DNA of 64,000 bases from Eledone cirrhosa. Taxonomy: Eukaryota. Location of the stretch: assembly GCA_964016885.1 (NCBI GenBank), contig OZ024741.1, positions 14,508,001 through 14,572,000 of the forward strand. Direction: 5' to 3'. Below the pieces are notes generated by a model that ran no database searches, was not told the origin of the DNA, and saw only the letters and a program-made list of their open reading frames with translations. Below, in pieces: positions 20,039 to 60,156 of this stretch. Both the position numbers and the translations under genes were made by a program. Every line of letters starts with the position of its first letter. The first letter of the stretch is position 1.

Positions 20039-20117
<79 letters not shown>

Positions 20118-20120
20118 TAT

Positions 20121-20580: not shown

Positions 20581-20648
20581 ATATATATATATATATATAA
20601 AAATATATATATATAAAAATATATAAAAATATATATATATATATAGAG

Positions 20649-22262: not shown

Positions 22263-22403
<141 letters not shown>

Positions 22404-22903
22404 AAAGAATAGAGGTGTAACACACAAGTTATTATATATTGGTAAACGGAATAGAAAATGCTGACAAATTGTTCACAGTTGAAAAATGGTTTAATTAGGA
22501 ATAAAAGAGTATTAGTGATTGTATTGGTTAGTATTCAGTTGTGGTTTTAAGTTTTTAAGTTTTTACCGGTTGCGCATTTCTAAATGCTTTTCAAAAATAA
22601 TTTTGAGATAGAGTGTCCGTGCTGTTTGCTCTGATCTCAGCAAACAGCACGGACACTGATCAGAGCAAACAGCACGGACACTCTATCTCAAAATTATTTT
22701 TGAAAAGCATTTAGAAATGCGCAACCGGTAAAAACTTAAAAACTTAAAACCACAACTGAATACTAACCCATACAATCACTAATACTCTTTTATTCCTAAT
22801 TAAACCATTTTTCAACTGTGAACAATTTGTCAACATTTTCTATTCCGTTTACCAATATATATATATATATATAAAAAATATATATATATAAAAATATATA
22901 AAA

Positions 22904-22940
<37 letters not shown>

Positions 22941-24002: not shown

Positions 24003-26518
24003 AATGTAGGAGGTGAGTTTAATTGTAGTACAATAAAGCAATGCAGATATCGGATAAGAAGCACTCTACAGTTTGTAGGACTGGAGTATACATAATATAT
24101 AAGATCAAAAGATGGTTAAATGAGTTCCATGTATTTTATTATGCGCATTTCAAAAACAAATATCATCATGCAATAACATTTGTGTTTTCATCAGATAAAA
24201 TAGGAGGACATGATATGAAGGTTAAAAACACTTGTGGATAGTGCAGTTTTAAATCAACATATGAAAAGTAGTTTTAGATTGATGTGTGATATTGGCTAAA
24301 AAAAATTTTTTTTTGAGGGGGGGGGGAAGATGAAAAGAGGAGGAGATGAGAGTAAAAAGTGGAGGGGGAGGAGTATAAGGAGGAAGGATGAGATAGGAGG
24401 AGAGATGGCTGATAGAGAGAGAGAGATAGCTTTTATAACTGAGAAAAATATATTGTTTTACATAGAGAGGTTGAAAAACCGTTGGAAGATAATGTATAAA
24501 TTAAAAGAATTGAAAATTAACGAAGAGAAAAATAATGTAAAGTTAAGGTTTGTATATTGAAGGGTTTAATATGTGCGATGAAAAGAAATTGTTAATATGT
24601 ATTAAGAATAATATTTAAGGGTTTAATAATATGTGCGATGGAAAGAAAATGTTAATATGTATTAAGAATAATTTTAAGGGTTTAATAATATGTGCGATGG
24701 AAAGAAAATTGTTGATATGTATTATTAAAAAAACAGAAGTAATGTAAGTAAGGATATATTGTGAGATGAGCATGAATAAGTTAGATGAAAGTGAGAAAAA
24801 AATAATGAATAGAGGATGAATAATCTAACGTAAAAAAAAATGTTTATGTTTACGAAGGATTTTTTCAAGGTCATATAAAGTTAGAATATAGTGTATTGTG
24901 TAATAATTGTTTCTATGTTAGGCACAGTGAGAAAAGGTACAGATTAGGGGTTAGAAATTAAAAGAAAAAGAAAAGAAAAGGAAAAGGAAGAAAGGGAAGT
25001 GATGAATAGGAATGATATAGAATATGATAAATAACTTTGAAATAAGGTAGAAAGATGGGTATATTTTTAAAGAAGTATATATATATATATATATATATAG
25101 ATAGATATGTGCCTTTGAGAAAAGGATTCTGAATTGATAAAGTTTAGGATATTAGCTGTATACTTTATGGAAAGTTCTGTGGAATTTATGCAAGCAGATA
25201 GAAAACAAGTCAGTGCGTCTATTTATTATAGAATCTATTTACTATCTTAAATTGCAACATAGTTAACCTTAATATTATTAAGAACAATATACGTAATCTC
25301 TTTAACCAACATAACCTAAAAATTGAATTTGATAACAGCATCAAACTAGCTAATCTCTTGGGTGTATCTCTTAATCTTGACACTGGCCTATATTACCCTT
25401 ACCATAAAAACAATGAGAACCTAAATTATGTTAATTTTAAATCTAACCACCCTACTAATATTAAGAATGCTATAGTTAGTAATATTGGAAAAAGAATATC
25501 TAACCTATCTTCTAATAAAAACATCTTCGATGCTAACGCCAATTACTATAATAACGCGCTTTCTAAAGCCGGCTATCCCGATAAAATCAAATATAATAAA
25601 GAAACAAATTCTAGAAAATCTTACAGTAGAATAATTAATCATGATCATTCCAATAACTTTAATAAAAGACCTAGATACAAAACATAATCTGGTATAATGC
25701 TCCTTTCTCCATCTCTATTAATAATAATATTCCTAAATTATTCTTTAGTGCCTTAAATAAATGCTTCCCTCCCTCACATATCTATAGTAAAATATTTAAC
25801 AAACACACTATCAAATTTTACTATTCGACATCCTTCAACATTTCCAACATCATCTCTAAACACAACAATAAAATACTAAATACTAAATCTCTTCCTTCCA
25901 ACACTGAATATCATAATAATAGTAATAGTACTCCCGACGTCATTGTAAACCCTAGGCTAATTTCTGCAAACCCAAATACAACGTCAAACACAACTTCGCT
26001 AAATGTTCTTAATCCCATTCTAAATCAAGAAAATATTATTCCTATCGCAAATAACTTCTCCAATCCAATTCCTTCTATAGATAACACTAGGTCACTCGTT
26101 AATAATCTCTCTAATCGCAATTGCAATTGCCCTGCTAAAAATAAATGTCCTCTCAACAACCATTGTCTTGATAAAAACTTAATTTATGAATGTAAAGTTA
26201 TAACTGACACCAATTCCTTCACCTATTTTGGTTCAACTTCCACCAATCATCATTCGTCTTTTAAATATAAACTTAAAAGAACCAACACGGCTCTCTCAGG
26301 ACTCATATGGTCCTTGAAAGACAAAAATATTAAATATAACATCTCTTGGAAAAATCTCTGTCTGAATGAAAAATTTACCATTATATCTAATTTAGATTCT
26401 ATAATAAATAGAGGCACTGACTTGTTTTCTATCTGCTTGCATAAATTCCACAGAACTTTCCATAAAGTATACAGCTAATATCCTAAACTTTATCAATTCA
26501 GAATCCTTTTCTCAAAGG

Positions 26519-26597
<79 letters not shown>

Positions 26598-27572
26598 TTC
26601 TTTAAACATATACCCATCTTTCTACCTTATTTCAAAGTTATTTATCATATTCTATATCATTCCTATTCATCACTTCCCTTTCTTCCTTTTCCTTTTCTTT
26701 TTTTTTATTTTAATTTCTAACCCCTAATCTGTACCTTTTCTCACTGTGCCTAACATAGAAACACTTATTACACAATACAATATATTCTTACTTTATATCA
26801 CCTTGAAAAAATCCTTCGTAAACATAAACATTGTTTTTGACGTTAGATTATTGATCCTCTATTCATTATTTTTTTCTCACTTTCATCTAACTTATTCATG
26901 CTCATCTCACAATATATCCTTACTTACATTACTTCTGTTTTTTTAATAATACATATCAACATTTTCTTTCCATCGCACATATTATTAAACCCTTAAAATT
27001 ATTATTAACATTTTCTTTCCATCGCACATATTATTAAACCCTTAAATATTATTCTTAATACATATTAACAATTTCTTTTCATCGCACATATTTAAACCCT
27101 TCAATATACAAACCTTAACCTTACATTATTTTTCTCTTCGTTAATTTTCAAATTCTTTTAATTTATACATTATCTTCCAACGGTTTTTCAACCTCTCTAT
27201 GTAAAACAATATATTTTTCTCAGTCATAAAAGCTATCTCTCTCTCTCTATCAGCCATCTCTCCTCCTATCTCATCCTTCCTCCTTATACTCCTCCCTCTC
27301 CACTTTTTACTCTCATCTCCTCATCTTTTTCATCCTTTCCAACCTCCCCACCTAAAAAAAAAATTTTTTCCCCAATATCACACATCAATCTAAAACTACT
27401 TTTCATATGTTGATTTAAAACTGCACTATCCACAAGTGTTTTTAACCTTCATATCATGTCCTCCTATTTTATCTGATGAAAACACAAATGTTATTGCATG
27501 ATGATATTTGTTTTTGAAATGCGCATAATAAAATACATGGAACTCATTTAACCATCTTTTGATCTTATATAT
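24003..27572. mobile_element. 5'-truncated, head-to-head Penelope-like (Hydra-clade-like) insertion, second subfamily
   Basis: Minus arm 24003-25238 (3' UTR + ORF end); plus arm 25239-27572 (decayed ORF from FTILNCN + 3' UTR); homologous to 36491-43610; HHRs 24133-24201 (-) and 27466-27534 (+). Confidence 0.9.
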
Positions 27573-30433: not shown

Positions 30434-30530
30434 ATCACCTTCACCACTAATTGATTTGACAGATGTCTTTAACCCATTGATACCAAATATTATTTGGTCA
30501 GTAGTTCGTGCATATACGTACATATATATA

Positions 30531-31077
<547 letters not shown>

Positions 31078-35119: not shown

Positions 35120-36295
35120 GATTACCAGGGATTTTTTCCGTGCGAAGAAAATCAACACTTTATCGTGAAATTAATACTTTTGTTTATATTTTGTTATTGT
35201 GTATGCACAAATATCTGCACACGAATATATAATTATATATATATATATTAAAATAAGAGATTAAAGTTTAAGCAAAGAATTACTGCTTTCACCCTTAACG
35301 GGATCTTCTGAAACTAAAAATATCAATCTGTGAACGCAGAAGTAAATATTTCGAAAAACGTTACACACTATATATATATATAAATACATACACGATACAT
35401 ATATACACACAGCTACGTCATAATGTCGTAATGCAGATAGCCAGGCATACAGACAGATATTATAAGAGCGCGACGTTATATCTATGTATCTATCTAAAAA
35501 GAGAAAGATTAAGAGTTATAGAGTCTTAGTCTTAGTCTTAGATTCTTCCGGAACGTTCGTCGCCAGGTGATCCTTGGGCAACCCCGCCTCCGTTTACCGC
35601 CAGGCGGAGTCCAGTTCATCGCTGTTTTCGAATGCTGTTAATTTGGCAGACGCAGATATGGCCAGTCAGACGGCACCGACGCTCCGTGACCACTCCCTGT
35701 AGCGTGCACGACTCGGCTCTCCGCAGGATCTCCTCGTTTCGCACTCGGTCGCACCAGGACACACGAAGGATCTTTCGCAGGCACCGCTGGTGGAAAGCGT
35801 TCAGCCGTCTCTCTATTTTTGCCGTACTCTTCCAGGTCTCGCTCGCATAAAGCACTGTCGGCAGCACGATGCTCTTGTACAAGGTCATGAGAACGGCCAG
35901 CAACACAGGTCCAGTGATCAGAGTCAACCAACAGGACCTCGAGGAAGTCGATCACTTCACCTATCTGGGCAGCATCCTGACAAGCAGCGGCGACGCGGAG
36001 CTCGACATCAACTGTCGGATCGGCAAAGGAGCCGCAGTTTTCCAGTAGCTGTTCCCAGTCTGGTTATCTTCATGCATTAGCACCAAGACCAAACTCCGCC
36101 TGTACAAGAGTTATATAGAGAGATCGCTAAATCGCCTAATGCGGTCCGTAGAGCATTGAAAATTTGAAATTTCTTCCTCAAAACATTCACAGGACCATAA
36201 GTATTACATGTGTAAAGTTTGAAAACAATCGGTTGGGTGATTCTCTAGTTTTAGTGATCGGACAGACAGACAGACATTCTCTGTTGTAGATATAT
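35120..36295. mobile_element. Helitron-like non-autonomous element, copy 1 (interrupted by an RTE)
   Basis: Collinear with 36296-36440 + 45095-45560; (GACA)n block near one end. Confidence 0.55.
35521..36105. mobile_element. 5'-inverted RTE-clade LINE insertion with TSD
   Basis: Minus part LYKSIVLPTVLYASETW...FHQRCLRKIL with (CTAAGA)3 tail; plus part LEEVDHFTYLGS...TKLRLYK; TSD aagagttata at 35511 and 36106. Confidence 0.85.
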
Positions 36296-36435
36296 ACTAG
36301 CAGAATGGCCCGGCGCTGCTCGAGATTTTCTCTAGGGTTCTTATATATTTGATATATATTTATCCTTCTCGAGCCTCGTGAAATAAATACGTTTGTTTAT
36401 ATTTTGTTATTGTGTATGCAAAAATATCTGTACAC

Positions 36436-36494
<59 letters not shown>

Positions 36495-37662
36495 GGAGGT
36501 GAGTTTTATTGTAGTACAATAAAGCAATGCAGATATCGGATAAGAAGCACTCTACAGTTTGTGGGACTGGAGTATGCATAATATAAGATCAAAAGATGGT
36601 TAAAGGAGTTCCATATATTTTATTATGCGCATTTCAAAAACAAACATCATCAAGCAATAATATTTGTGTTTTCATCAGATAAAACAGGAGAACATGATAT
36701 GAAGGCTAAAAAAACACTTGTTGATAGTGCAGTTTTTAATCAACATATGAAAAGTGGTTTTAGATTGATGTGTGATATTGGGAAAAATATTTTATTTAGA
36801 GAGGGGGGGGGAGGATGAAAAGGGAAGGAGATGAGAGGGAGAGATGGGTGATAGAGAGAAAGAGATAGTTTTTATAACTGAGAGGAGATATATTTTTTAC
36901 ATAGAGGGGTTGAAAACCGTTGGAAGATACTGTATAAATTAAAAATTTTGAAAATTAACGAAGGGAGGATATGTGCGAGGAAAAAATATTTTATTTAGGG
37001 AGCGGGGGGGGATGAAAAAAAGGGGGGAGGAGATGAGAGTGAAGGTGGAGAGGGAGAGATGGGTGATAGAGAGAAAGAGATAGTTTTTATAACTGAGAAA
37101 AAGATATATTGTTTTAATATAGAGAGGTTGGGAACCGTTGGAAGATAATGTATAAATTAAAGGAATTTGAAAATTAACGAAGGGAAATTATGTATGAAGA
37201 TAGAGAGAAAAAAATAATAATTGTGGGTGAATATTCTAACGTCAAAAGAAGAAATGTATGTATTGTGGCAATTTCAAAATTAGCGAAGAGAAAAAAAAAT
37301 GTTAAGGTTTGTGTGTAGAAGGATTTGAGAAAAATAATGTGAAGTTAAAGTTTGTATATTGAATTGATATGTATTAATAATGAGTTCGTTGATGGGGAGA
37401 AAAAAATAATAATAAATTAAGGATGAAATTGAGATTAAAAAGATTTATGATAGAGAGAAAAAATAATAATGATTGCGGATGAATATTCAAAATGTCAAAA
37501 ACAAATGTTATTATTTTACGAGAAGATAGAATGAGGGTAATGAGTAAACGAGTATTATAGAGTGTATAATGCCCTTTAAAGTAAGGTAGATGGGTATATT
37601 TTAAAGAGGTGTATGTATATGTGCCTTTGAGAAAAGATTCTAAATTGATAAAGAATTGAATA

Positions 37663-40065
37663 TTAACTGTATACTTTGTGAAAAGTTCTATGGAATTTAT
37701 GCAGGCAGATAGAAAACAAATCTGAGCGTCTATTTATTATAGATTCTAGGTTAGAGATAATGGTAAATTTTTCATTTAGGCAAATATTACAGATTTTAGA
37801 TAGAGAGCTGTTCAAGTATGAGGATGCAGAAGAAATCTTTTTCCAAAAGATGTTATATTTAATGTTTTTGTCTTTTAAGGACCATATGAGTTCTGAGAGA
37901 GCAGTGTTAGTTCTTTTAAGTTTGTATTTGAAAGATGAATGATGATTATAGAGACGAGCTTTAAAAGAGGTGGAAGTGGAGCCAAAATAGGTGAAGGAAT
38001 TGGTGCTAGTTATAATTTTACATTCATAAATTAAGTTTTTATCGAGGCAATGGTTGTTGAGAGGACATTTATTTTTAATGCGGCAGTTGCAATTAGAGAG
38101 ATTATTAATGAGTGATCTAGTGTTATCTATAGAAGGAATTGGATTGGAGAAGTTGTTTGCGATAGGAATAATAGGAATAATAGTTTCTTGATTTAGAGTT
38201 GGATTATGAACATTTAGCGAAGTTGTGTTTGACGTTGTATTTGGGTTTACAGAAGTTTGCCTAGGGTTTACAATGACGTCGGGAGTACTATTACTGTTAT
38301 TATGAAATTCAATATTGGAAGGAAGAGATTTAGTATTTAATATTTTGTTGTTGTGTTTAGAGATGATGTTGGAAATATTGGAGGATGTAGAATACGAAAA
38401 TTTGATGGTGTGTTTGTTAAATATTTTACTATAGATATGTGAGGGAGGGAAGCATTTATTTAAGGCATTAAAAAATAATTTAGGAATATTGTTATTAATA
38501 GAGATGGAGAAAGGAGCATTATACCAGATTATGTTTTTGTATCTAGGTCTTTTATTAAAATTATTGGAATGGTCATGATTAATTATTCTACTGTAAGTTT
38601 TCCTAGAATTTGTTTCTTTATTATATTTGATTTTATCTGGATAGCCGGCTTTAGAAAGTGCGTTATTATAGTAATTGGCGTTAGCATCAAAGATGTTTTT
38701 ATTAGAAGATATGTTAGATATTCTATTTCCAATATTATTAACTATAGCATTCTTGATATTGGTAGGATGGTTAGATTTAAAGTTAACATAATTAAGATTC
38801 TCATTGTTTTTATGGTAAGGGTAATATAGGCCAGTGTCAAGATTAAGAGATACATCCAAGAAATTAGCTAGTTTGATACTATTATCAAATTCAATTTTTA
38901 GGTTATGTTGGTTAAAGAGATTACGTATATTGTTCTTAATAATATTAAGTTTAACTATATTGCAATTTAGGATAGTAAAGAGTCCATCGTCACGATAAAT
39001 TCCACCGCGAAGTTGAGGAATTTTCCGACTCAAAGAGTTCAAAATGAAGATACCAATTAAATCAGTCAATTGGGATGAATCGGATGCTCCCATTGTGATG
39101 TCGAAGTTGTTAGAGGTATCGGCTCTGGTCCAATATTCGTTGTTGAACTCTAGGATGGTTTTACGTGCGGTGAGGATAATGTGAAGTTCATCTGTGGTGA
39201 TGTCAGAATATTTAAGTGCGAAAGATAGAGCATTATTGAGAAGTGAAGGCGAAATGGAGGAATAGTAGCTGGCAATATCGAATTGAATAAATTTTAGTTT
39301 GTTTTTATTATCCAATTTGTTGAACCAGCCAATCACTTCAGAAGTACCAAACCATAAATTTAGGTTTAAAGAAGAGCAATTAGAACTAACCTGTGGGATA
39401 ATCCTATCCAAGATGGCTTTACTAACAACCCCCAGATCAGATTTAGAGGGGGCGATTAATCTAACAGATAGTTCAGTGCGAAAATTGTTTTTGTGATCCT
39501 TGAGATTTATCCTCGGAGTTCTTGGGAGGAATGGTTCGGTCTTTTTTTCAATGCCAAGTTTTGACATAATCTCATAGGCTTCAAGGTTTATGCATTCTAA
39601 ATTTTCATGGTTGGTTTTACGATACTTTTTCCTAAGTTCCTTTAGGATAAGGTTGTTATAATTATCCTTGGAAATACCATATAGGTTATTGGTTTTGTCA
39701 GAGTGGACTAAAACATTTTTTGAGGAATTTAGGTTAGAGATTGTGTTCTTGAGATTTACAAGGTGCTCTTGTCCTTTGTAAGGGTATCTCTTGAATTTAA
39801 GATGTTTTATTATTTTAGTTAATTCTTCCTCGAATTGTGCTAGATTTTTGTTGGAAGGAGGATTTCGTCTAGAATTAAAAAGATGATCGAGGAAGTTGTG
39901 TTCTTTGGTATGAAAGTTCCCTTTTAGGCGCTGGTCATAGAAATAGGCTGTCCATCTAAGTCTTCTTACGAAGGAGTCAGTTTTTTCAATAAGGAGTTTG
40001 GCGAATTCGGATTTACTAGGTATAGGAATGTCTTTAGTTGAATTGGTTATGTTGTAATAATCCAT
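37663..40065 (-). CDS. Intact ~800-aa PLE protein: RT + CxC/Cys linker + C-terminal GIY-YIG endonuclease (Hydra-clade-like)
   Basis: KDIPIPSK...LRW N-terminus; FIQFDIASYY, ITMGA, IYRDDGL, NFLDV; CNC-x5-CPL-x3-C; LIY..YFG, R..H; CNICLNEK; likely ATG at 40065 (frame open from 40125). Confidence 0.92.
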   Translation of the reverse strand: MDYYNITNSTKDIPIPSKSEFAKLLIEKTDSFVRRLRWTAYFYDQRLKGNFHTKEHNFLDHLFNSRRNPPSNKNLAQFEEELTKIIKHLKFKRYPYKGQEHLVNLKNTISNLNSSKNVLVHSDKTNNLYGISKDNYNNLILKELRKKYRKTNHENLECINLEAYEIMSKLGIEKKTEPFLPRTPRINLKDHKNNFRTELSVRLIAPSKSDLGVVSKAILDRIIPQVSSNCSSLNLNLWFGTSEVIGWFNKLDNKNKLKFIQFDIASYYSSISPSLLNNALSFALKYSDITTDELHIILTARKTILEFNNEYWTRADTSNNFDITMGASDSSQLTDLIGIFILNSLSRKIPQLRGGIYRDDGLFTILNCNIVKLNIIKNNIRNLFNQHNLKIEFDNSIKLANFLDVSLNLDTGLYYPYHKNNENLNYVNFKSNHPTNIKNAIVNNIGNRISNISSNKNIFDANANYYNNALSKAGYPDKIKYNKETNSRKTYSRIINHDHSNNFNKRPRYKNIIWYNAPFSISINNNIPKLFFNALNKCFPPSHIYSKIFNKHTIKFSYSTSSNISNIISKHNNKILNTKSLPSNIEFHNNSNSTPDVIVNPRQTSVNPNTTSNTTSLNVHNPTLNQETIIPIIPIANNFSNPIPSIDNTRSLINNLSNCNCRIKNKCPLNNHCLDKNLIYECKIITSTNSFTYFGSTSTSFKARLYNHHSSFKYKLKRTNTALSELIWSLKDKNIKYNIFWKKISSASSYLNSSLSKICNICLNEKFTIISNLESIINRRSDLFSICLHKFHRTFHKVYS

Positions 40066-40155
40066 GTTGTAGAAGAAGAGGTGAAGGACCATCAAAAGGT
40101 ATCCAATATGAGAGTAAGCGCTCAACCGTTAAGGAGCAAGTTAATGTAGGAGGTG

Positions 40156-42525
40156 AGACATTCCTATACCTAGTAAATCCGAATTCACCAAACTCCTTAT
40201 TGAAAACACTGACTCCTCCGTAAGAAGACTTAGATGGACAGCCTATTTCTATGACCAGCGCCTAAAAGGGAACTTTCATACCAAAGAACACAACTTCCTC
40301 GATCATCTTTTTAATTCTAGACGAAATCCTCCTTCCAACAAAAATCTAGCACAATTCGAGGAAGAATTAACTAAAATAATAAAACATCTTAAATTCAAGA
40401 GATACCCTTACAAAGGACAAGAGCACCTTGTAAATCTCAAGAACACAATCTCTAACCTAAATTCCTCAAAAAATGTTTTAGTCCACTCTGACAAAACCAA
40501 TAACCTATATGGTATTTCCAAGGATAATTATAACAACCTTATCCTAAAGGAACTTAGGAAAAAGTATCGTAAAACCAACCATGAAATTTAGAATGCATAA
40601 ACCTTGAAGCCTATGAGATTATGTCAAAACTTGGCATTGAAAAAAAGACCGAACCATTCCTCCCAAGAACTCCGAGGATAAATCTCAAGGATCACAAAAA
40701 CAATTTTCGCACTGAACTACCTGTTAGATTAATCGCCCCCTCTAAATCTGATCTGGGGGTTGTTAGTAAAGCCATCTTGGATAGGATTATCCCACAGGTT
40801 AGTTCTAATTGCTCTTCTTTAAACCTAAATTTATGGTTTGGTACTTCTGAAGTGATTGGCTGGTTCAACAAATTGGATAATAAAAACAAACTAAAATTTA
40901 TTCAATTCGATATTGCCAGCTACTATTCCTCCATTTCGCCTTCACTTCTCAATAATGCTCTATCTTTCGCACTTAAATATTCTGACATCACCACAGATGA
41001 ACTTCACATTATCCTCACCGCACGTAAAACCATCCTAGAGTTCAACAACGAATATTGGACCAGAGCCGATACCTCTAACAACTTCGACATCACAATGGGA
41101 GCATCCGATTCATCCCAATTGACTGATTTAATTGGTATCTTCATTTTGAACTCTTTGAGTCGGAAAATTCCTCAACTTCGCGGTGGAATTTATCGTGACG
41201 ATGGACTCTTTACTATCCTAAATTGCAATATAGTTAAACTTAATATTATTAAGAACAATATACGTAATCTCTTTAACCAACATAACCTAAAAATTGAATT
41301 TGATAATAGTATCAAACTAGCTAATTTCTTGGATGTATCTCTTAATCTTGACACTGGCCTATATTACCCTTACCATAAAAACAATGAGAATCTTAATTAT
41401 GTTAACTTTAAATCTAACCATCCTACCAATATCAAGAATGCTATAGTTAATAATATTGGAAATAGAATATCTAACATATCTTCTAATAAAAACATCTTTG
41501 ATGCTAACGCCAATTACTATAATAACGCACTTTCTAAAGCCGGCTATCCAGATAAAATCAAATATAATAAAGAAACAAATTCTAGGAAAACTTACAGTAG
41601 AATAATTAATCATGACCATTCCAATAATTTTAATAAAAGACCTAGATACAAAAACATAATCTGGTATAATGCTCCTTTCTCCATCTCTATTAATAACAAT
41701 ATTCCTAAATTATTTTTTAATGCCTTAAATAAATGCTTCCCTCCCTCACATATCTATAGTAAAATATTTAACAAACACACCATCAAATTTTCGTATTCTA
41801 CATCCTCCAATATTTCCAACATCATCTCTAAACACAACAACAAAATATTAAATACTAAATCTCTTCCTTCCAATATTGAATTTCATAATAACAGTAATAG
41901 TACTCCCGACGTCATTGTAAACCCTAGGCAAACTTCTGTAAACCCAAATACAACGTCAAACACAACTTCGCTAAATGTTCATAATCCAACTCTAAATCAA
42001 GAAACTATTATTCCTATTATTCCTATCGCAAACAACTTCTCCAATCCAATTCCTTCTATAGATAACACTAGATCACTCATTAATAATCTCTCTAATTGCA
42101 ACTGCCGCATTAAAAATAAATGTCCTCTCAACAACCATTGCCTCGATAAAAACTTAATTTATGAATGTAAAATTATAACTAGCACCAATTCCTTCACCTA
42201 TTTTGGCTCCACTTCCACCTCTTTTAAAGCTCGTCTCTATAATCATCATTCATCTTTCAAATACAAACTTAAAAGAACTAACACTGCTCTCTCAGAACTC
42301 ATATGGTCCTTAAAAGACAAAAACATTAAATATAACATCTTTTGGAAAAAGATTTCTTCTGCATCCTCATACTTGAACAGCTCTCTATCTAAAATCTGTA
42401 ATATTTGCCTAAATGAAAAATTTACCATTATCTCTAACCTAGAATCTATAATAAATAGACGCTCAGATTTGTTTTCTATCTGCCTGCATAAATTCCATAG
42501 AACTTTTCACAAAGTATACAGTTAA
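40156..42525 (+). pseudogene. Inverted copy of the PLE ORF lacking the first codons, with a 1-nt deletion near 40585
   Basis: Starts at DIPIP; catgaaattt versus catgaaaattt; the 634-aa ORF differs only by S>P. Confidence 0.9.
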
Positions 42526-43503
42526 TATTCAATTCTTTATCAATTTAGAATCTTTTCTCAAAGGCACATATACATACACCTCTTTAAAATATACCCATCT
42601 ACCTTACTTTAAAGGGCATTATACACTCTATAATACTCGTTTACTCATTACCCTCATTCTATCTTCTCGTAAAATAATAACATTTGTTTTTGACATTTTG
42701 AATATTCATCCGCAATCACTATTATTTTTTCTCTCTATCATAAATCTTTTTAATCTCAATTTCATCCTTAATTTATTATTATTTTTTTCTCCCCATCAAC
42801 GAACTCATTATTAATACATATCAATTCAATATACAAACTTTAACTTCACATTATTTTTCTCAAATCCTTCTACACACAAACCTTAACATTTTTTTTTCTC
42901 TTCGCTAATTTTGAAATTGCCACAATACATACATTTCTTCTTTTGACGTTAGAATATTCACCCACAATTATTATTTTTTTCTCTCTATCTTCATACATAA
43001 TTTCCCTTCGTTAATTTTCAAATTCCTTTAATTTATACATTATCTTCCAACGGTTCCCAACCTCTCTATATTAAAACAATATATCTTTTTCTCAGTTATA
43101 AAAACTATCTCTTTCTCTCTATCACCCATCTCTCCCTCTCCACCTTCACTCTCATCTCCTCCCCCCTTTTTTTCACCCCCCCCCCGCTCCCTAAATAAAA
43201 TATTTTTTCCTCGCACATATCCTCCCTTCGTTAATTTTCAAAATTTTTAATTTATACAGTATCTTCCAACGGTTTTCAACCCCTCTATGTAAAAAATATA
43301 TCTCCTCTCAGTTATAAAAACTATCTCTTTCTCTCTATCACCCATCTCTCCCTCTCATCTCCTTCCCTTTTCATCCTCCCCCCCCCTCTCTAAATAAAAT
43401 ATTTTTCCCAATATCACACATCAATCTAAAACCACTTTTCATATGTTGATTAAAAACTGCACTATCAACAAGTGTTTTTTTAGCCTTCATATCATGTTCT
43501 CCT

Positions 43504-43572
43504 GTTTTATCTGATGAAAACACAAATATTATTGCTTGATGATGTTTGTTTTTGAAATGCGCATAATAAAAT
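43504..43572 (+). ncRNA. HHR in the PLE 3' region (mirror copy 36617-36685 -)
   Basis: gttttat CTGATGA [~16-bp stem II] GAAA T-GCGC-A TA ataaaat. Confidence 0.85.
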
Positions 43573-43603
43573 ATATGGAACTCCTTTAACCATCTTTTGA
43601 TCT

Positions 43604-45100
<1,497 letters not shown>

Positions 45101-45569
45101 TAACAGATTAAAGTTTAAGCAAAGAATCGCTGCTTTCACCCTTAACGGGATCTTCTGAAACTAAAATAATAAATCTGTGAACGCAGAAGTAAATATTTCG
45201 CAAAACGTTACACACACTATATATATATATATATATATACATACATATACACACACACACCGCCTCATAATGACGTAATGCAGACAGTCAGGCATACAGA
45301 CAGATATTATACGAGCGCAACGTTATATCTATGTATCTATCTAAAAAGAGAAAGACTAAGAATTATAGAGAGAGATCGCCAAATCGCCTAATGAAGTCCC
45401 TAGGGCATTGAAAAATTTGAAATTCTTTTTGCTCAAAACACTCACGGGACCATAAATATTATATATGTAAAGTTTGAAAAAACTCGGTTGGGTGGTTCTC
45501 GGGTTTTAGTGATTGGACAGACAGACAGACAAAAAGACATTCTCTGTTTTAGTAATATATTATATATAT

Positions 45570-45843: not shown

Positions 45844-48327
45844 GACATCTCTATAGCGGACTTAAGGACAGCATTCAATAAATCTCATAAATGGAAATCA
45901 GCTGGTCGAGACAGGGTGCCAAATTTCTGGCTTTCCTCACTCCCGTGCACTCACAATATATTGGTCAAGCTGTTTAATGGAATTATGAAAGATCCAAAAA
46001 ATACACCTGATTGGATAGCAAGTGGCATTACCTACCTTCTACCAAAGAACAACGAAACCAAAGATCCAAAAGAACTATCGGCCCATAACCTGCTTGTCCA
46101 CCACTTATAAACTATTAACCTCTATTTTGGAGGAGAACAGTCTTTTCCCCATTGAACAAAAAGGGTGCCGACGAGGTTCATATGGCTGCAAAGATCAACT
46201 TTTGATTATTAGTATGATCCTTGGAACTGTCATAATAAACACAGAAATCTCAGTTCTGCGTGGATCGATTATAAAAAAGCCTTTGACACCATACCACATT
46301 CATGGATTCTGAAATCACTGGGCATCTTCAAAATCTCACCCGTGATCTCAAATTTCATGAAACACAATATGTCATTATGGAACACAAATCTCCAATTGTC
46401 TCATTCCACTGGGGTACTGTGCTCTAGGAATATAAACATCAACTGTGGTATATTCCAGGGTGACTCACTTTCACCCTTGCTTTTCTGCATAGCTTTAATA
46501 CCCCCTACATCCGAACTTAATAGAACGGGTACAGTTATAGAATTGACAACAAAAAAATAAGCCACCTATTTTATAAGGATGATTTGAAGCTATATTGCAA
46601 AGATATTGACGAACTGGAAGGCCTTTTGCGGACAGTAAAACCGTTTAGCGATGACATCAGGATGGAGTTTGGACTTGACAAGTGTGCAAAAGCCACTTTC
46701 AAGAAGGGGAAGCTTGTCAACTCACTCAGTTGAATTGGATGTTGAAACAATCATAAAGGAACTTGAACAGAAACAAACCTATAAATACTTAGGGATTAAT
46801 GAGGGCTCTGGCATACAGCATGCAAGTATGAAAGAGAGGATAAGGAAAGAATGTTACAGGAGAGTACGTGCAGTTCTGAGATCAGAACTAAACGCTCGTA
46901 ACAAGGTGCTAGCCATAAATTCCTTGGCAGTCCCAGTTGTCACTTATAGCTTCGGTGTGTTGAACTGGAATATGAGTGAAATCAAAAGAATCGACACCAA
47001 AGTCCGAAAGCTACTGACCTGTAATAGGATGCACCACCCAAAAGCAGATGTGGATCGTCTTTACCTTCCTTGAACTCAAGGAGGCCGTGGCCTGATCCAA
47101 TTTGAACTTGCTTACAAGACCACCATCATTGGACTGGCCAAATACCTTGAAACAACTAACGACTGTATGCTGAAACTTGTTGAAAAGTATGAGAGAAGTA
47201 AGAAGCTTCTTTCTATCTTGAAGGAGAACAAAAAATATGCTACTGATCTCATGCTTGATACCCAGGCTGGACAGACTAAAGAAACTGTTGCAACTGATGC
47301 TGCTAGGTACATAAAATCACTGGCAAAAGCAAAAGGGCAAGGACAATTAGCATCTAATTGGGAGCAGAAACCTCTGCATTGAAAATATGTGGCCCGTAGC
47401 AAACAAGCTGTTGTTGACCAAAAGCACACCCATCAGTGGCTACGTAGTTCAGAGTTAAAGGCGGAGAGTGAAGGCTTCATCTTAACTGCCCAAGATCAAA
47501 GCTTATTGACTCGTAATTACCAGGCCAATGTGATGAGAAACGGAATAAACCCAAAGTGCCGATTCTGCAATGCTGAGATTGAAACAGTGGATCACTTAGT
47601 CTCTGGATGTAAAGTTTTGGCACCAGTAGAATACAAATATAGACATGACAGAGTTGGCCAATATCTACACTGGGTAATATGTCGGCATTACAAAATCAAA
47701 GCTGAAGACATGTGGTACAATCATCAGCCTGAGGCTGTAACTGAAGGAGAAAAAGTAACAATTCTCTGGGACTTTTCTGTACATACTGACAAGACCATAA
47801 AAGCAAATAGACCTGACATCATTATAAAAGACCAACATAACAAGGTCTGTCTATTGATAGATATGACCATCCCATGTGATCACAATATCGCGGCAAAAGA
47901 ATTTGACAAGCTACGAAAATATAAAGATCTGCTTATTGAAATTGAGAAAATGTGACACCTCAAGGCCGTTACAATAACAGTGATTGGGGGAGGACTGGGA
48001 ATGATCAAGAAAGGAACAGAACAATATTTGCGAATGATTCCTGGTTTACCCTCTCTGCACGAGGTGCAAAAAATTGTTTTCACTGGTACTGCACACGTAT
48101 TGAGAAGAGCACCATCTCTGTAAGATTGATATCCCTCCTTGTATTTACATATGCATATGCACATGTGTATATATGTATACTGTTTTATTGTTTTTGTTTT
48201 TTTTTAAATTATAATCAATGTGCTGTATTAACTGGCTTACCAATGCACACTGTGAATTTATTTGCCCTAGGTGCCAGGAAGACACTCGGCATATATCTCA
48301 GAAACAATAATGAAGGAAAATAAAAAC
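45843..48327 (+). mobile_element. 5'-truncated, decayed R4/Dong-clade non-LTR element (RT + restriction-like endonuclease) in (TAA)n
   Basis: NYRPITCL, GIFQGDSLSP, YKYLGI, CRFC..ETVDHLVSGC, RHD, RPD..D, K..KY; (AAT)n at 45812-45842 and 48328-48368. Confidence 0.88.
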
Positions 48328-48652: not shown

Positions 48653-49689
48653 TACACTCTGCTTTGTTCAACACTTCTATACTTACTGGAAACTACGCGG
48701 CAAGTGTTCACTGTGAGGAACCTACAGTAACTGGACATTGCAATCCCTATATATATATATATACGTCTACACACATACACACACATATATTACCATATTT
48801 TTGGTTGATTAATTACGCATACGCGTGTACAATCTTGTAAATATGAACACATGTATATGTATATGTATATATATATACATACAATTATTTATTTAAGTAT
48901 GTACACATACATATACATATATTCATACATACACGTGTCTATTAGTGTATACAAACCTGACATATGTTATTAAACAGTAACCGCTTTACTGAGTTGTAAA
49001 AGACTTTGAATACATGAAAGAAATGAATCGGAAAAGCATGTGAGATAGAAAAAAGGCGGAATGGGGAATGTAGCAAAGTAGAACGATGAAGAAGTAGTCA
49101 CACTGAACAGATACAGAGATGTAGTCTATACTGTAACCCTTTTGATACTAAACCGCATCGAACTGCCCTCCATTCTACTATACAAAGCTGTTTGTTCTAA
49201 AGGGTTTATATTTATCTTGAAAGCTCACATCATAATTTTAGGAGGGTCGTCTGAAAAGTTTATAACCTCGCCTACAGACAATGTTGTTTTCTTTTTCTGT
49301 CTGTTTAACCAAATAAAAAAAATGATATAACGGAAATTCTGTTTTGGTGTTGTCTATCGAAACTCGACGATAATTTCGATATTTCGCTTTTGAGGATGTT
49401 ATGTGTTCATGAGAAGTGTTCCCTGCTAAATTTAAAAATCCGCATACACAGTCCACGCTGTTTACAATTAGTGTTGCAGCAATTTAAGAAGTTTGAACAG
49501 ATAAAAAGACGTCTCACCAGTAAAGATACAAAAGTACAGGGACCGGGAGAAAATCAATTATAACCAACCCAGAACACATATACTTTATTTTATAAATTTA
49601 TAGCATTTATAGTCCTTTCCTCTACTTTACTTTCCAGTGAGATCTGCCTTTCTTTACACCTTGCCCCCTCAGTTTATTACTTTTTATTC

Positions 49690-51570
49690 ATATTTCCACC
49701 ATTGTATAACTTCTGTAAAATATAGTTGACATAATATGTTTATATATAACAGATAACAACATATTTCTACCATTGTATAACTTCTGTAAAATATAGTTGA
49801 CATATGTTTCTATATAACAGATAACATATTTCTACCATTGTATAACTTCTGTAAAATATAGTTGACATAATATATTTATATATAGCAGATAACAAAATAT
49901 TTCCACCATTGTATAGCTTCTGTAAAATATAGTTGACATAATATATTTATATATAACAAATAACAAACTATTTCCACCATTGTATAACTTCTGTAAAATA
50001 TAGTTGACATAATATGTTTATATATAACAGATAACAAAATATTTCCACCATTGTATAACTTCTGTAAAATATAGTTGACATAATATGTTTATATATAACA
50101 GATAACAAAATATTTCTACCATTGTATAACTTCTGTAAAATATAGTTGACATAATATGTTTATATATAACAGATAACATATTTCTACCATTGTATAACTT
50201 CTGTAAAATATAGTTGACATAATATATTTATATATAACAGATAACAACATATTTCTACCATTGTATAACTTCTGTAAAATATAGTTGACATAATATGTTT
50301 ATATATAACAGATAACATATTTCTACCATTGTATAACTTCTGTAAAATATAGTTGACATAATATGTTTATATATAACAGATAACAACATATTTCTACCAT
50401 TGTATAACTTCTGTAAAATATAGTTGACATAATATATTTATATATAACAGATAACAAAATATTTCCACCATTGTATAACTTCTGTAAAATATAGTTGACA
50501 TAATATATTTATATATAACAGATAACATATTTCTACCATTGTATAACTTCTGTAAAATATAGTTGACATAATATGTTTATATATAACAGATAACATATTT
50601 CTACCATTGTATAACTTCTGTAAAATATAGTTGACATAATATGTTTATATATAACAGATAACAACATATTTCTACCATTGTATAACTTCTGTAAAATATA
50701 GTTGACATAATATATTTATATATAACAGATAACAAAATATTTCCACCATTGTATAACTTCTGTAAAATATAGTTGACATAATATGTTTATATATAACAGA
50801 TAACAAAATATTTCCACCATTGTATAACTTCTGTAAAATATAGTTGACATAATATGTTTATATATAACAGATAACAAAATATTTCCACCATTGTATAACT
50901 TCTGTAAAATATAGTTGACATAATATATTTATATATAACAGATAACATATTTCTACCATTGTATAACTTCTGTAAAATATAGTTGACATAATATGTTTAT
51001 ATATAACAGATAACAACATATTTCTACCATTGTATAACTTCTGTAAAATATAGTTGACATAATATGTTTATATATAACAGATAACAAAATATTTCCACCA
51101 TTGTATAACTTCTGTAAAATATAGTTGACATAATATATTTATATATAACAGATAACATATTTCTACCATTGTATAACTTCTGTAAAATATAGTTGACATA
51201 ATATGTTTATATATAACAGATAACAACATATTTCTACCATTGTATAACTTCTGTAAAATATAGTTGACATAATATATTTATATATAACAGATAACATATT
51301 TCCACCATTGTATAACTTCTGTAAAATATAGTTGACATAATATATTTATATATACCAGATAACAAAATATTTCCACCATTGTATAACTTCTGTAAAATAT
51401 AGTTGACATAATATGTTTATATATAACAGATAACAAAATATTTCCACCATTGTATAACTTCTGTAAAATATAGTTGACATAATATGTTTATATATAACAG
51501 ATAACAACATATTTCCACCATTGTATAACTTCTGTAAAATATAGTTGACATATGTTTATGTCAACTATAA
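49690..51570. repeat. AT-rich 65-71-bp minisatellite, ~27 copies, ending in a short hairpin
   Basis: Unit atatttccaccattgtataacttctgtaaaatatagttgacataatatgtttatatataacagataacaaa. Confidence 0.95.
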
Positions 51571-53843: not shown

Positions 53844-55147
53844 CAGAGTGGGGCATAAAATCTGTTACAAAATAAAATGCAAATAGTTCTTGAATAAAAC
53901 ATTTATTTCCAGATCTGACTCCAACAAATACTAAGTAATATACTATTAAACAACTGCACAAAAATCTATTCGAAATGCTTTTCTCTAGCTCTCACTACCG
54001 CTCGAAGTCTTCTAGGAAAGTCTTCGATGGCTGCACGAAGAGTTTCCATGGCTATTTTCTCCCATACTTTATTCAGTTTTGATTTTAGAGTTTCAATATT
54101 TTACCTAGGAGTAGAGCAGGCTTCACTCTCAAGGATTGACCATAAAGAAAAATCGAGAGGGTTGAGATCAGGTGATGTGGGAGGCCACTCTTCCTTACTG
54201 ATCCATGCAGGACAATGGTCTCAACACCACTGTTGTGTTACGCGAGCAGTGTGGCTTGTCGCTCCATCTTGTTGGAGAGTCAAAATGTCATCGCCATAAA
54301 CAGATATGCATCATGGCATCATTGCTCCTTCCAAAATATCCTTTATGTAAAATTCTTTGTTAATTTTAACTCCTTCAGGCACAAAAATCAGAGGAGACTT
54401 CCCTCTTTCAGAAATGGCTGCCCAAACCATCACTGATTCTGGTTTCTGAGTTCTGAACACTTTTCCTACACTTGAAGGAATCGATTTGTGACTTTTTGCA
54501 AGTACTCCATAATTTTGATGATTGTGAGACTGCTGCACAGTGAATAACTTCTCATCTGTAAAGATGATGTTTTGCAGCGTGCCATCTTTGATATGGTTCA
54601 ATAACAGTTTACTTCTGGAGAGCCTCTTTTCAATTGTGGCTGCAGAAAGAAGCTGCATCTTTTGGAACTTATAGGGTGACATCCCCAGATCATCTCGACA
54701 TATACTGCGCATAGTTCTCGGCGATGTTTCTGCTTCTTCTGCCATTTTTCTATGGACCTTCTTGGATTACGCCTTATTTTTTCCCTCACACTTTTAACGA
54801 GTTTTGGTGTTCTTGAGGTGCGAGGGCGTCCGGATTCAGATCTGTCTTTGGTCGAGGAAGTTTCCTTAAATCGATCGATTGTCCTTTTGATCAACATTCT
54901 ATTGATCTTAAGAGTTTTCCCCAGTTTAAATATCTTGGGTGGAGTCAGGCCTTTTTCATGCTTCTCTATTATGAACTTTCTTTTCAATTCTATGGACATT
55001 GCAAATTGTTAATGGTGTAATGTTCTGAAAAATGGTTAATATGGTTATAGTGCATGGATTTGATACAAATATATTAGTTATATTAGCAGCATAATGTATG
55101 TTTAAAATTGATTTAAAACTTTGGAACAGGAATTATGCCCCACCCTG
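53844..55147 (-). mobile_element. Full-length decayed Tc1/mariner, maT (DD37D) family
   Basis: TA TSD, ~28-bp imperfect TIR cag[a/g]gtggggcataa; IIFTDEK, VMVWAAIS, QQDGATSH...SPDLNPLD with 37 residues between the last two Asp; frameshift and stops. Confidence 0.9.
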
Positions 55148-55470: not shown

Positions 55471-56353
55471 GTTGTGTATAATGGTAGCTATGGTGCTTCC
55501 ATAGGCAGTATGCCAAAATTAGCACTCGATATTCAGCAGAATAGAGTGGAAATAGTATAAAGAAAACGAAAAATCAGTGATGCATCTGGACTTAATTTAT
55601 TGCGCGTTACAATTGTTTCGCCGGCAGGTAGCTCGAGACATGGTCCTTGTATGGATCTGGCTGATTCTACTTCTGCAGGTTCTTTCAGACACGGGTATTT
55701 CGTTCGGAGCAAATTTTATTACTGGGGTGTTATCATCAAAATACACCCTCAAAATCCCTACTTCCACTCTTGTCATGCCATTGGCTGCTTTTACTCCACG
55801 CCATCACAAGTTCTGGTCCCTATTTACTGCCGCACAGGTCATCAGCCATTTTCCGTCCGACACATTTCAATGGAGTCATGCTGGGTTCAGTACCTCACAC
55901 GTCTGTGCACACTTCAGAGTAAGCACCCACACATACTAATTTACACACACATATACACACACATGCAGACAAAGATACATTCATGCATACACACACGTAC
56001 GCCTACATGCGCAGATACCCCCACCCCCATACATATACATATATGTATATATACACACACACTCTCTCCCTCACTTCCACGGACCCAGTCACACCCACTT
56101 GTAGATACATATCGCCACAAGCCTTATAACGGCTGCTTAGTTCGCGCCATGTAACCGGTGGGATAAGCATGGCCTACTCAAACATACACATATATACATA
56201 CGCGCGCACACATACATACGCACAACCTAATATACATTTATATATATATACACACTCATACACAGACATATATACATACACACATACATACACATACATA
56301 CATATACACACACATATGTATATATATATATATATATATACATACACACACAG

Positions 56354-56397
<44 letters not shown>

Positions 56398-56804
56398 TCA
56401 CACATGCCCACACATACATACAAAATACACATACGTACACAAAATTACTTCCACACGTACATACACACACATATATATATATACATACATCTATATACAC
56501 AAAAAAACAACCTAACATGTATACGCACAGCCACATATATACATACATATACCTACGCATATGCAGACATATATACATCTACATATGCATACGCACGCGT
56601 GCTGCCACATGCATACACCTGCACATATGCATATTTGCCTACACACACATGTGCTTCCAGATATACATATATAAACAAAACCGTAAATTAAAAATTAAAA
56701 ATACATTATATAATAAAAAACACAATAAACCATAAAATAACGGTAAAATACCATAACATAAAATATAAAATATAAGGTATAAAATATCAATATATTAAAA
56801 AATA

Positions 56805-56887
<83 letters not shown>

Positions 56888-59181
56888 CACACACACACAT
56901 GTACACAGATTCATACATACATATACGGATATATACAAAGGATATGTGATAGAGTAATACAAAAAGATTAATAGTAATAATAAAAAGCATATATACTCCA
57001 TACATAATCATCCGTACACATTCCTGTGAGATACACATAAACACATACATGTATGCACAAATATACATACACACATATAGAGGCCCACATATTCATACAC
57101 CCGCACCCACACACACATATATATATATACACATATACATATATATACACACTTACTCACCCACACAGACACACCTACTCATACGTGGCTATACGTACAT
57201 ACGCACACATATATAGACATACTTATATATATTCATATATACACACATATATATACACACATATATATACACACATATATATACACACATATATATACAC
57301 ACATATACACACATTCTGCCACATATGTACATACATGCACATGTCTGCACATACACGCGCTTATAAGCTCATGCACACATGCACCCATGCCCATATACAC
57401 ATATACACCCCCCAGCACCCACCCACGTATATATATATACATCTACACACACACATACATATACCTACGCACAGGTCCACACACAAAACACGCGAATATA
57501 AACACAATATGATAATAAAATAAAATAAATAAATAAATTTACAATATTTTAGAGTACATTAAAATCTGCATGTAACTGCATAAATAGGTACAAGAAAAAA
57601 AGAGGTAAAATAAAAAAAACGGGTAAAATAAAAAAAAACAGGGGGAGGGGAGGTACAGGAGAAGGTGCGTGTATCCATGTTATATACTACACACAGGTAG
57701 TATGAGGTGCAAACTTGTGTCCATATATAGAACAGGTAACAGTAACAGAACAATAATAGAACAATAATTGTTTCTACTATTGGCACAAGGCCAGCAATTA
57801 CCCAGTACATTACTGGTACTTTATTTTATCGACCCCGTAAGGATGAAAGGCAAGTTAACCTGGGCGGGATTTGAACTCAGATCGTAAAGGGATGTAACTA
57901 TGCTGGAAAGCATGGCGTCCGACTGTCTACCTATACTGCCAATCCACCGCCCTACAATAATAGAACAATAATGACAGTAATAATCATTACTCCATTCCAG
58001 GGCGTAGGGAGTGCCTTGGTCTTTCAGGTCCCACACCAGGTCCGCTAACCTAGTGGAGTGCCTTTTGCTACGGTCCCTGAAGGAATTCGTGTGATTATAC
58101 ATCCGCGATTTAAAGGTCGTGGATGTTGCGCCGGTGTAGGTGCGATGTGCGTTTTGGGTTGTAACCACACACTTGTATATTAAGTCTTTCATCAAGCATT
58201 TTCCCTGTAGGGGCACCGGGTGCCCGCTCTACAATTACAAGTTCTGCTGTCAGTTCTTGTGCATCCGATGTCCGGGCCTCGATCTGTTATGGCCCTCTCA
58301 AGGTTCCCAGGGTGTTGTTCCGCCGACACTGTTGTCTCCTCCATGCCACTATTTCCCTCTCGGTGCTGGACCATATCGCCCTCCACGGGCGCTCTGGTCG
58401 CCTCGAGGGCCGGGTTGTCATTTGAGGGTAGGTCCATGGGTGGTTCTCCCCGCTCCGAAAGACGGTCACTCTGTCGCCGCGATTGACGGCCAGTGTGCGC
58501 CATCTTCACCGCGTTAGTTTTAACCATGTAGTCGGCCATATTAGGCGCCGTGGAGAAGGAAAATTTCACCGTATGGCGGTTGAAGATTTTGTGGTACTTG
58601 TTTGTCGTCGGAAAGCACTCATCCAACGCTCGGAAGAAAAGTCCTGGTACGTTGGTGCGTACATGCTTGGAGTAAGGCGCATTGAACCAAGTAATGGCCT
58701 TAGATCTGTTCCTTCGTGTGCGTGGATTCTTGTTGTTGTGTCCAGGACTCGATGTCCGTCCAGTGCTCGGCCCAACCACAATTTCATCCCGTGTGTTGTC
58801 TCTGTCTATTTGCCCGCTATGTGCGTCGGGGTTATGTTCTACAGTTATAAAATTACGTCGTTCTATGGGGTCATCTATACGTCTATTCCCCTTAGGTCAA
58901 TGTGATGCTGCTGTCCGTGTTGTAGCACTACAACCAGACTGGTCGTGCTCCCTGGCGTGTGCCCCGTTCGTATTTGTCGAAGTCCTGTCCGTGGTCCCAG
59001 TTGCCGCGGTGTATTCAGTATGCGTGCCAGGTCCATGCCTCCGCGTACTGGGTGGTCTGGCTCTTATGGGTGCCTTTGTCCTACCTCCGGTCGGCCCTGT
59101 GTCATTAATGCTAGTTGTGTTGTTATTTGTGTTCCTGGATACTGCTACCGGGTCAATTCTTCTACCTATGGTTCTTTTTTT

Positions 59182-59228
<47 letters not shown>

Positions 59229-60110
59229 ATGTACGTGTGTATGTAATGTTGTGTACGTATGTGTAATTTGTATGTATGTGTGGGCATTTGTGAGTGTATG
59301 TATATATATATATGTATGTATGTATGTATATATATATATATATACATATGTGTGTGTATATGTATATATGTGTATGTATGTGTGTATGTATATATGTCTG
59401 TGTATGAGTGTGTATATATATATAAATGTATATTAGGTTGTGCGTATGTATGTGTGCGCGCGTATGTATATATGTGTATGTTTGAGTAGGCCATGCTTAT
59501 CCCACCGGTTACATGGCGCGAACTAAGCATCCGTTATAAGGCTTGTGGCGATATGTATCTACAAGTGGGTGTGACTGGGTCCGTGGAAGTGAGGGAGAGA
59601 GTGTGTGTGTATATATACATATATGTATATGTATGGGGGTGTGTGTGTCTGCGTATGTAGGCGTACGTATGTGTATGCATGAATGTATCTTTGTCTGCAT
59701 GTGTGTGTATATGTGTGTGTAAATTAGTATGTGTGGGTGCTTACTCTGAAGTGTGCACAGACGTGTGAGGTACTGAACCCAGCATGACTCCATTGAAATG
59801 TGTCGGACGGAAAATGGCTGATGACCTGTACGGCAGTAAATAGGGACCAGAACTTGTGATGACGTGGAGTAAAAGCAGCCAATGGCATGACAAGAGTGGA
59901 AGTAGGGTTTTAAGAGGGTGTATTTTGATGATAACACCCCAGTGATAAAATTTGCTCCAAACGAAATACCCGTGTCTGAAAGAACCTGCAGCAGTAGAAT
60001 CAGCCAGATCCATACAAGGACCATGTCTCGAGCTACCTGCCGGCGAAACAATTGTAACGCGCAATAAATTAAGTCCAGATGCATCACTGATTTTTCGTTT
60101 TCTTTATACT
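55471..60110. mobile_element. Head-to-head insertion of a third, GC-richer Hydra-like PLE family
   Basis: Inverted arms ~55553-56490 / ~59185-60110; minus-strand ORF remnant 57985-58800 (ITWFNAPYS, CNCRAGTRCP, LIY..YTG, RMYNH); HHRs 55603-55693 (-) and 59971-60061 (+). Confidence 0.85.
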
Positions 60111-60119
60111 ATATATATA

Positions 60120-60154
<35 letters not shown>

Positions 60155-60156
<2 letters not shown>

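Follow-up and report, generated by a model that had tools for sequence, protein, structure and literature searches.

Inverted, 5′-truncated copies and tails are described features of Penelope-like elements (PLEs), according to the structural passages of Craig et al. 2021 (PMC8557442). As set out there, the Hydra clade is diagnosed by DKT and RWK motifs, a CxCX5C linker, CxxC and CxH beside the E and N of the endonuclease (EN), absence of CCHH, (TA)n targets and a hammerhead, with listed consensus lengths of 1,080-3,045 nt. The closest biochemistry comes from an anole PLE, whose protein, in vitro, cuts AT-rich DNA on both strands and extends each of them (Frangieh et al. 2024, PMC11167929). The sections of that paper on the reaction place the start of reverse transcription at two sites bounding the tail, predict a dimer, describe the later insertion steps as unvalidated and place PLE promoters, as is thought, in an upstream pseudo-long terminal repeat (pLTR). 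Here we analyse a stretch of 64,000 nt from Eledone cirrhosa (assembly GCA_964016885.1, contig OZ024741.1, positions 14,508,001 to 14,572,000, forward strand; hereafter the window), in which two inverted copies of one element form a palindrome between (TA)n microsatellites. Judged from sequence, the element is very probably a Hydra-type PLE and the locus real.

Architecture of the palindromic locus

Global and BLAST alignments pair an arm at 36578-40033 with an inverted arm at 40156-43611, each of 3,456 bp. Over 3,457 alignment columns the arms are 99.77% identical, with six substitutions and two one-base indels, both located in homopolymers; a 3.45-kb match at 99.8% identity (arm against arm, BLAST E = 0.0) is far above chance. 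The initial annotation had reported a 7.1-kb near-perfect palindrome with a handful of differences and arms of ~3.45 kb, as we find, and a spacer of ~130 bp, which measures 122 nt (40034-40155). The arms lie head-to-head, with the 5′ ends of both copies facing each other at the centre and the copies pointing outward. (TA)n borders both outer termini, as a left target microsatellite (36438-36490, in a 54-nt TA tract ending at 36491) and a right one of 32 nt (43609-43640).

The left copy (36491-40157, minus strand) is a full-length unit of 3,667 nt, consisting of a 13-nt pLTR remnant, a 79-nt 5′ untranslated region (UTR), an open reading frame (ORF) and a 1,172-nt 3′ UTR that includes a tail of 87 nt (36491-36577, minus strand). 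This tail is restricted to the left end of the palindrome, the right end having none. Two diverged direct repeats of ~215 nt lie within the long 3′ UTR (36780-37200, minus strand; 87.6% identity over 169 nt). The unpaired spacer is the 5′ end of the left copy, with its first 11 codons, 5′ UTR and pLTR remnant. That remnant (40145-40157, minus strand) directly repeats the tail end at 36491-36503 and would be explained as the leftover of an upstream tandem copy, because the corresponding tandem joint, 40144→36491, is seen in read run X17. The right copy (40156-43611, plus strand), delimited by the arm alignment, is inverted, 5′-truncated at codon 12, frameshifted and tail-less. Microhomology at the junction amounts to 2 nt (AG), the last two of the 13-nt repeat.

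A related, older insertion with the same layout occupies 24003-27572, with a tail-bearing arm of ~1.23 kb and a tail-less arm of ~2.33 kb. Its tail (24005-24091) matches that of the palindrome and is likewise one-sided, bearing out the tail rule that the initial annotation saw in both insertions.

Flanking sequence points to a genuine insertion. The flanks are unmirrored (25% identity over 300 nt), and an uninterrupted host-repeat paralogue 1.2 kb upstream of the palindrome (35163-35523, plus strand) matches 36376-36444 on one side (65/69) and 45085-45370 on the other (263/290). Because the flanks rebuild this repeat, the palindrome and an ORF-less neighbour (43641-44991) can be placed in the TA tract of a second host-repeat copy, and a foldback read is unlikely. 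The neighbour consists of a unit of 472-476 nt with a hammerhead motif, present in two direct and one inverted copies in the same (TA)n tract; it has a 4-nt hairpin at its centre (44578-44581) and a ~55-nt tail at its left end only. It looks like a non-autonomous PLE or retrozyme that follows the same tail rule.

We mapped four public read runs from related genomes on 36491-40230 and listed 14 joints; the runs mostly lack the private alleles of the palindrome and are thus uninformative on the locus itself. In each of the four, read depth drops steeply from 3′ to 5′, as 5′ truncation leads one to expect. The tail-less end is a family-wide feature, since in raw run X17 (TA)n is entered by 255 reads at 36578 and by 191 at 36581. 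One of the 14 joints is the whole-unit head-to-tail tandem in X17 (four reads, two starts), and four are opposite-strand joints at places other than the palindrome centre. An opposite-strand joint of X17 (36529/40079; 10 reads, two starts) has 39 nt of tail alone as its short side. Many more 5′ ends, and complete tandems, occur in the related genomes.

Encoded protein, predicted ribozyme and clade

An intact ORF of 800 amino acids (aa) in the left copy (37663-40065, minus strand; ATG at 40065, stop at 37663) would encode a reverse transcriptase (RT) with a C-terminal EN. The RT part has RRLRWTA at residue 34, SDKT at 122, KDHK at 189, FDI at 262 and YRDDG at 357, the catalytic FDI and YRDDG being invariant across 20 aligned proteins. 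The linker and GIY-YIG-type EN (37663-38091, minus strand; residues 659-800) contain CNCRIKNKC at 659, LIY at 678, YFG at 693, CNIC at 759, INRR at 777 and CLH at 787; the GIY-YIG residues (LIY..YFG, R, E and N) are kept in the homologue alignment, and there is no N-terminal EN. Between thumb and linker lies an in-frame Asn-rich insert of ~76 aa (38098-38325, minus strand; 17 N/76), missing from most homologues and modelled with a predicted local distance difference test score (pLDDT) below 50 at residues 582-657. In the right copy the frame begins only at codon 12, and the loss of 1 nt near 40583 breaks it into two parts of 144 and 646 aa.

Domain databases weigh against this assignment. Pfam gave neither an RT nor a GIY-YIG match on the 800-aa protein, and among its 20 aligned relatives RVT_1 was found in two and GIY-YIG in one (PF01541, E 0.0012). 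Since Pfam is nearly blank, the protein is identified by motifs and fold. The search for homologues yielded 28 proteins (29-43% identity); the only one with a name, from the octopod Argonauta hians, bears an uninformative label. An AlphaFold model built from the 20-protein alignment has a mean pLDDT of 82.6, and Foldseek ranks telomerase RTs first, second, fourth and fifth among its matches. The VIA fold search likewise puts telomerase RT best (Z 16.1, root-mean-square deviation 5.5, 296 aligned), with a diversity-generating retroelement RT, yeast TERT and DRT2 tied within 1 Z of the top. Residues 679-772 are modelled at a pLDDT of about 88-95 as strand-strand-helix-helix-strand-helix, which we take to be the order of GIY-YIG domains. 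Folded alone from its single sequence, the EN domain reaches a pLDDT of 36.8; of 301 candidates for the EN region used alone as a query, none qualified, and a PDB sequence search with the 20-protein profile gave no real match.

The combination of a telomerase-related RT with catalytic aspartates and a GIY-YIG endonuclease in one ORF is that of EN-bearing PLEs, and the 13-nt pLTR remnant, inverted copy, 87-nt tail and tandem joint in X17 reproduce the PLE layout. Within PLEs, placement in the Hydra clade rests on motifs and agrees with the Hydra-like label of the initial annotation. The change from DKG to DKT is present as SDKT, in a stretch (SDKTNNLY) identical to that of Hydra-1_Obim. RRLRWTA retains RW with T for K, and we counted it as the RWK motif; the residue after RW varies among homologues (K, R, M, E, F, A), and by eye the DNA of Hydra-1_Crog reads RWR. 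CNCRIKNKC provides the CxCX5C linker, CNIC and CLH flank EK at 765 and INRR in place of CxxC and CxH, CCHH is absent by eye, and the EN is C-terminal. (TA)n targets are seen at the palindrome, at 24003-27572 and in the loose ends of run X17. Length departs from the clade, which is typically, not strictly, below 3 kb, because of the long 3′ UTR and the Asn-rich insert. Naiad/Chlamys was rejected, as it requires an N-terminal EN and a CxC linker before the RT and the EN here is C-terminal; Neptune/Nematis was rejected because a regular expression for its CX2-5CxxC linker finds none in the protein and the EN lacks CCHH.

A motif scan predicts a minimal type I hammerhead in both 3′ UTRs, at 36616-36686 on the minus strand (predicted cut after 36624) and at 43503-43573 on the plus strand (predicted cut after 43565), and we counted it as the 3′-end hammerhead of the Hydra clade. 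Each of the four arms in the two insertions has this motif, CUGAUGA...GAAA with an 8-bp stem I and a palindromic stem III of 3 bp. All 26 of its 26 pairs form in both subfamilies, and three one-sided changes preserve pairing. Rfam at its gathering threshold gave 0 hits in the 64-kb window, which speaks against the prediction, and at E ≤5 over 43300-45100 it gave 119 weak hits, none on the PLE hammerhead. Minimum free energies of the region are unremarkable (z -1.51 and -0.37), and a shuffle control, resting on two distinct sequences, is uninformative. In the same relaxed scan, the ORF-less neighbour (43641-44991) received weak HH9 hits.

Origin of the palindrome

Six substitutions in 3.45 kb amount to an arm divergence of 0.17%. 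At 39468 and 40002 the right arm carries the allele of the mapped runs, at 39971 and 39982 the left arm carries the residue conserved in homologues, and two substitutions (right-arm 42719 and 43177) are unpolarised. Of 16 listed ORF alleles missing from more than 85% of the depth of run X1, 14 are common to both arms (nine silent, five not), and both arms therefore stem from one source locus. Three of the six substitutions lie within 63 nt of the centre (regions 39971-40002 and 40187-40218); the chance of this is ~1e-4 for a window picked post hoc and 0.005 for any three within 32 nt, and the cluster may have arisen through error-prone repair at the join.

The palindrome and the 24-kb insertion represent two subfamilies. 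They differ by 65 substitutions in 1,107 aligned ORF bases, with pN 0.023 and pS 0.208 over 407 codons (five multi-change codons excluded), which places the family under past selection for function. Belonging to a different subfamily, the 24-kb element is not a daughter of the palindrome; and neither of its arms is a plain copy of the other, because the tail-bearing arm is the shorter one.

We lean, if only slightly, towards an origin in which both target strands were nicked and RT was primed once from each nick, and a little more firmly if the Hydra-type identity and the locus are granted. The endonuclease of the element would itself nick both strands of the (TA)n target. A first complementary DNA (cDNA), copied from a tandem transcript, would start at the tail end, cover the whole unit and proceed for 13 nt in the next unit upstream; a second would start at the inner site 87 nt upstream and end before the ATG, leaving the first 11 codons uncopied. 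The AG microhomology would then join the 3′ ends of these cDNAs, both derived from the same source locus, with second strands filled by host repair. This resembles L1 twin priming, which also involves two primings at opposite-strand nicks and a microhomology join. In the L1 case a portion of a single RNA is inverted and nothing is duplicated; the Eledone arms copy the same sequence and yield a palindrome. Two primings would explain the discrete outer ends and the possibility of a shorter tail arm at 24 kb, and both insertions in the window terminate at two kinds of site that correspond to the RT starts seen in vitro.

A single priming followed by fold-back is possible though unlikely. One target-primed cDNA would reach the 5′ end of its template, fold at the 2-nt microhomology and copy its own strand, the second arm then being cut or joined at the TA-rich tail start. 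The nascent AG end can indeed pair 122 nt back along its own strand, and the two arms have 14 rare alleles in common. Related steps have been proposed for other PLEs: the discussion in Arkhipova et al. 2013 (PMC3846280) invokes self-priming, in another form, for head-to-head Penelope palindromes, and the structural passages of PMC8557442 attribute the tail to resolution by the endonuclease. Against fold-back stand the 24-kb insertion, where the tail-less arm is the longer of the two and a later deletion is needed, the two changes of the left arm that are absent from the right, and the tail-less end, which is discrete, family-wide and matches the second RT start in the reported reaction (PMC11167929). 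Several points in turn weigh against two primings. The junction sequence fits fold-back equally well, mutation after insertion could account for the private changes of each arm, and the short tail arm at 24 kb could stem from a later central deletion. The ORF-less neighbour also resembles a fold-back product: its hairpin centre is better explained that way, and its inverted arm is nearer the adjacent unit (two versus three differences).

Two further explanations were weighed. An assembly artefact, whether a long-read foldback mirroring one real copy or a misjoin of two loci, is highly improbable. It would account for arms 99.8% identical and for indels confined to homopolymers, and the read data leave it some room: no listed contig or read spans the centre, the runs lacking its private alleles; the X1 contigs (records 7 and 8) end at 40157; and the short-read opposite-strand joints, three of four from one restriction-site-associated DNA run with 2-5 starts, may be chimeras. 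The mirror, however, ends exactly at the tail-less terminus of the family and excludes tail and flank, the flanks rebuild an uninterrupted host repeat, and at positions where the left arm deviates the right has genuine alleles of the family, so that the doubt expressed in the initial annotation about a foldback artefact proves well founded. We also think it very doubtful that the locus is a whole copy of a read-through hairpin RNA from a palindromic master, or an old pair under arm-to-arm gene conversion. Four of the six substitutions could be read as minus-strand A-to-G if right-arm 42719 and 43177 are derived, and three of the six lie near the centre, which would suit hairpin RNA or conversion. 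A perfect 3.4-kb duplex RNA is expected to be heavily edited or diced, and the arms show only six substitutions although that strand offers 2,390 adenosines; the polarity at 39468 is wrong, centres differ in other copies, and the intact ORF and shared rare alleles also count against this reading. An origin of the arm differences by A-to-I editing was rejected, given six changes only and one of wrong polarity.

A variant of two primings, which we regard as rather improbable, would use one head-to-tail dimer RNA, on which an RT dimer starts at the downstream tail end and the upstream inner start. On meeting the second complex, the first cDNA would stall after 13 nt of the upstream tail, and a single step would account for the palindrome, the tail at one end and the very small pLTR. 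If true, the Eledone family, which is abundant and has sharply defined termini and numerous young copies, would allow the inverted-copy question of PLEs to be settled from genome data alone. An open-access search on twin priming in Penelope elements gave two papers, neither of which deals with PLE insertions as far as title and opening of the abstract show, so that the idea may still be published, and an open-access search on palindromic, inverted or tailed Penelope copies gave PMC3846280 as the only on-topic paper.

Two primings or not, the insertion is likely to be young, as first annotated, barring gene conversion masking its age, and the one intact ORF with RT and GIY-YIG motifs noted at the outset may still encode a working protein. 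Its suggested role as autonomous driver fares less well: 13 nt of the upstream pLTR are left, the 24-kb neighbour is of a different subfamily, and related genomes hold more 5′ ends and complete tandems. The prediction of kilobase double-stranded RNA was overstated, because arms that lie head-to-head and point outward give centre-started transcripts of the same sense, unable to pair; a hairpin RNA would require read-through from an outside flank.

Window context and comparison with described elements

The window is rich in other repeats. At 60130-61638, a retrozyme-like 467-nt unit flanked by (TA)n is repeated in 3.2 tandem copies at 99% identity, with a hammerhead motif in each unit (60371, 60838 and 61305); a lone hammerhead motif lies at 7893. 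A decayed fragment at 57992-58896 (minus strand) belongs to a second Hydra-type family, with 31-47% protein identity to the 800-aa ORF, and is bracketed by 946-nt inverted repeats (55552-56497 and 59194-60112, 93.8%). Further short palindromes or inverted pairs of 85-97% identity occur at 8070-8281, 20152-20589, 22368-22924, 30529-30820, 62323-62469, 62946-63368 and 17187-18387; of these, some terminate in (TA)n and could represent small insertions formed by fold-back.

What we take, from its motifs, to be a LINE-like element (long interspersed nuclear element) extends over 10400-15708, with a gag-like ORF at 10400-11770 and endonuclease-like and RT frames, interrupted by stops, at 12203-15708. 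Fragments at 54311-54766 (minus strand), 47383-47955, 63363-63980 and 35616-35951 (minus strand) presumably derive, again by motif, from Tc1/mariner transposases and RTE-type LINE RTs. Tandem arrays at 2907-5503, 49689-51552, 1-637 and 1764-2366 have units of ~123, 70, 52 and 48 nt, the 123-nt array forming an open frame of 862 codons. An assembly gap of 200 N (20991-21190) lies between duplicated blocks (18967-20121 and 21191-22351, 97.9%), whose duplication is possibly an assembly overlap.

As a very clean, near-full-length case in which the junction can be read, as can both ends and an empty-site paralogue, the palindrome offers test material and an assay substrate for the open matter of how PLE inverted copies and tails form. 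Its intact Hydra-clade ORF adds a candidate for the unusual Hydra endonuclease, which the sources at hand describe only from sequence. The octopus repeat paper (PMC13282606) lists recently active Penelope-like families; its passages on them do not use the word Hydra, and its supplements may include the Eledone family.

The nearest described system is the Hydra clade, including Hydra-1_Obim of Octopus bimaculoides and Penelope-13_HM, which according to its description (PMC8557442) shares with the Eledone element a single ORF with RT and C-terminal GIY-YIG, DKT, CxCX5C, CxxC and CxH around E and N, absence of CCHH, (TA)n targets and a 3′-end hammerhead. By eye, the first 45 residues of Hydra-1_Obim match the Eledone protein at 20 positions. 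Penelope-13_HM is listed in the same source with a 5′-truncated inverted copy at its 5′ end (nt 1-966). Compared with the clade as presented there, the Eledone unit is longer (3.67 kb versus generally <3 kb, and 2,507 for Hydra-1_Obim), has a 1.17-kb repeat-bearing 3′ UTR, an Asn-rich insert, RWT for RWK and a hammerhead stem II of 15 pairs, and carries a tail of 87 nt against the 30-40 bp stated for PLEs; its inverted arm is almost full length.

Poseidon PAc of Anolis carolinensis shares an AT-rich target, a one-sided tail and a hammerhead with the Eledone element and is the source of the two-strand nicking and two-start biochemistry, which we apply here by inference (reaction sections of PMC11167929). 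It belongs to another clade, and its pLTR, hammerhead and tail overlap the ORF start, whereas those features lie wholly in the 3′ UTR in the Eledone element. Adineta vaga Penelope, as portrayed in Arkhipova et al. 2013 (PMC3846280), has head-to-head inverted repeats with a one-sided tail and an in-frame Asn-rich insert between RT and EN (N1 in Pen2a), as here; it differs in its ~200-bp direct pLTRs and 8-10 bp target duplications, where the Eledone element has 13 nt of direct pLTR, a microsatellite target and no readable duplication. The Eledone element thus adds a new and young family to an established clade; its layout is likewise a described one, in which the inverted arm is unusually complete and arm length alone is extreme.

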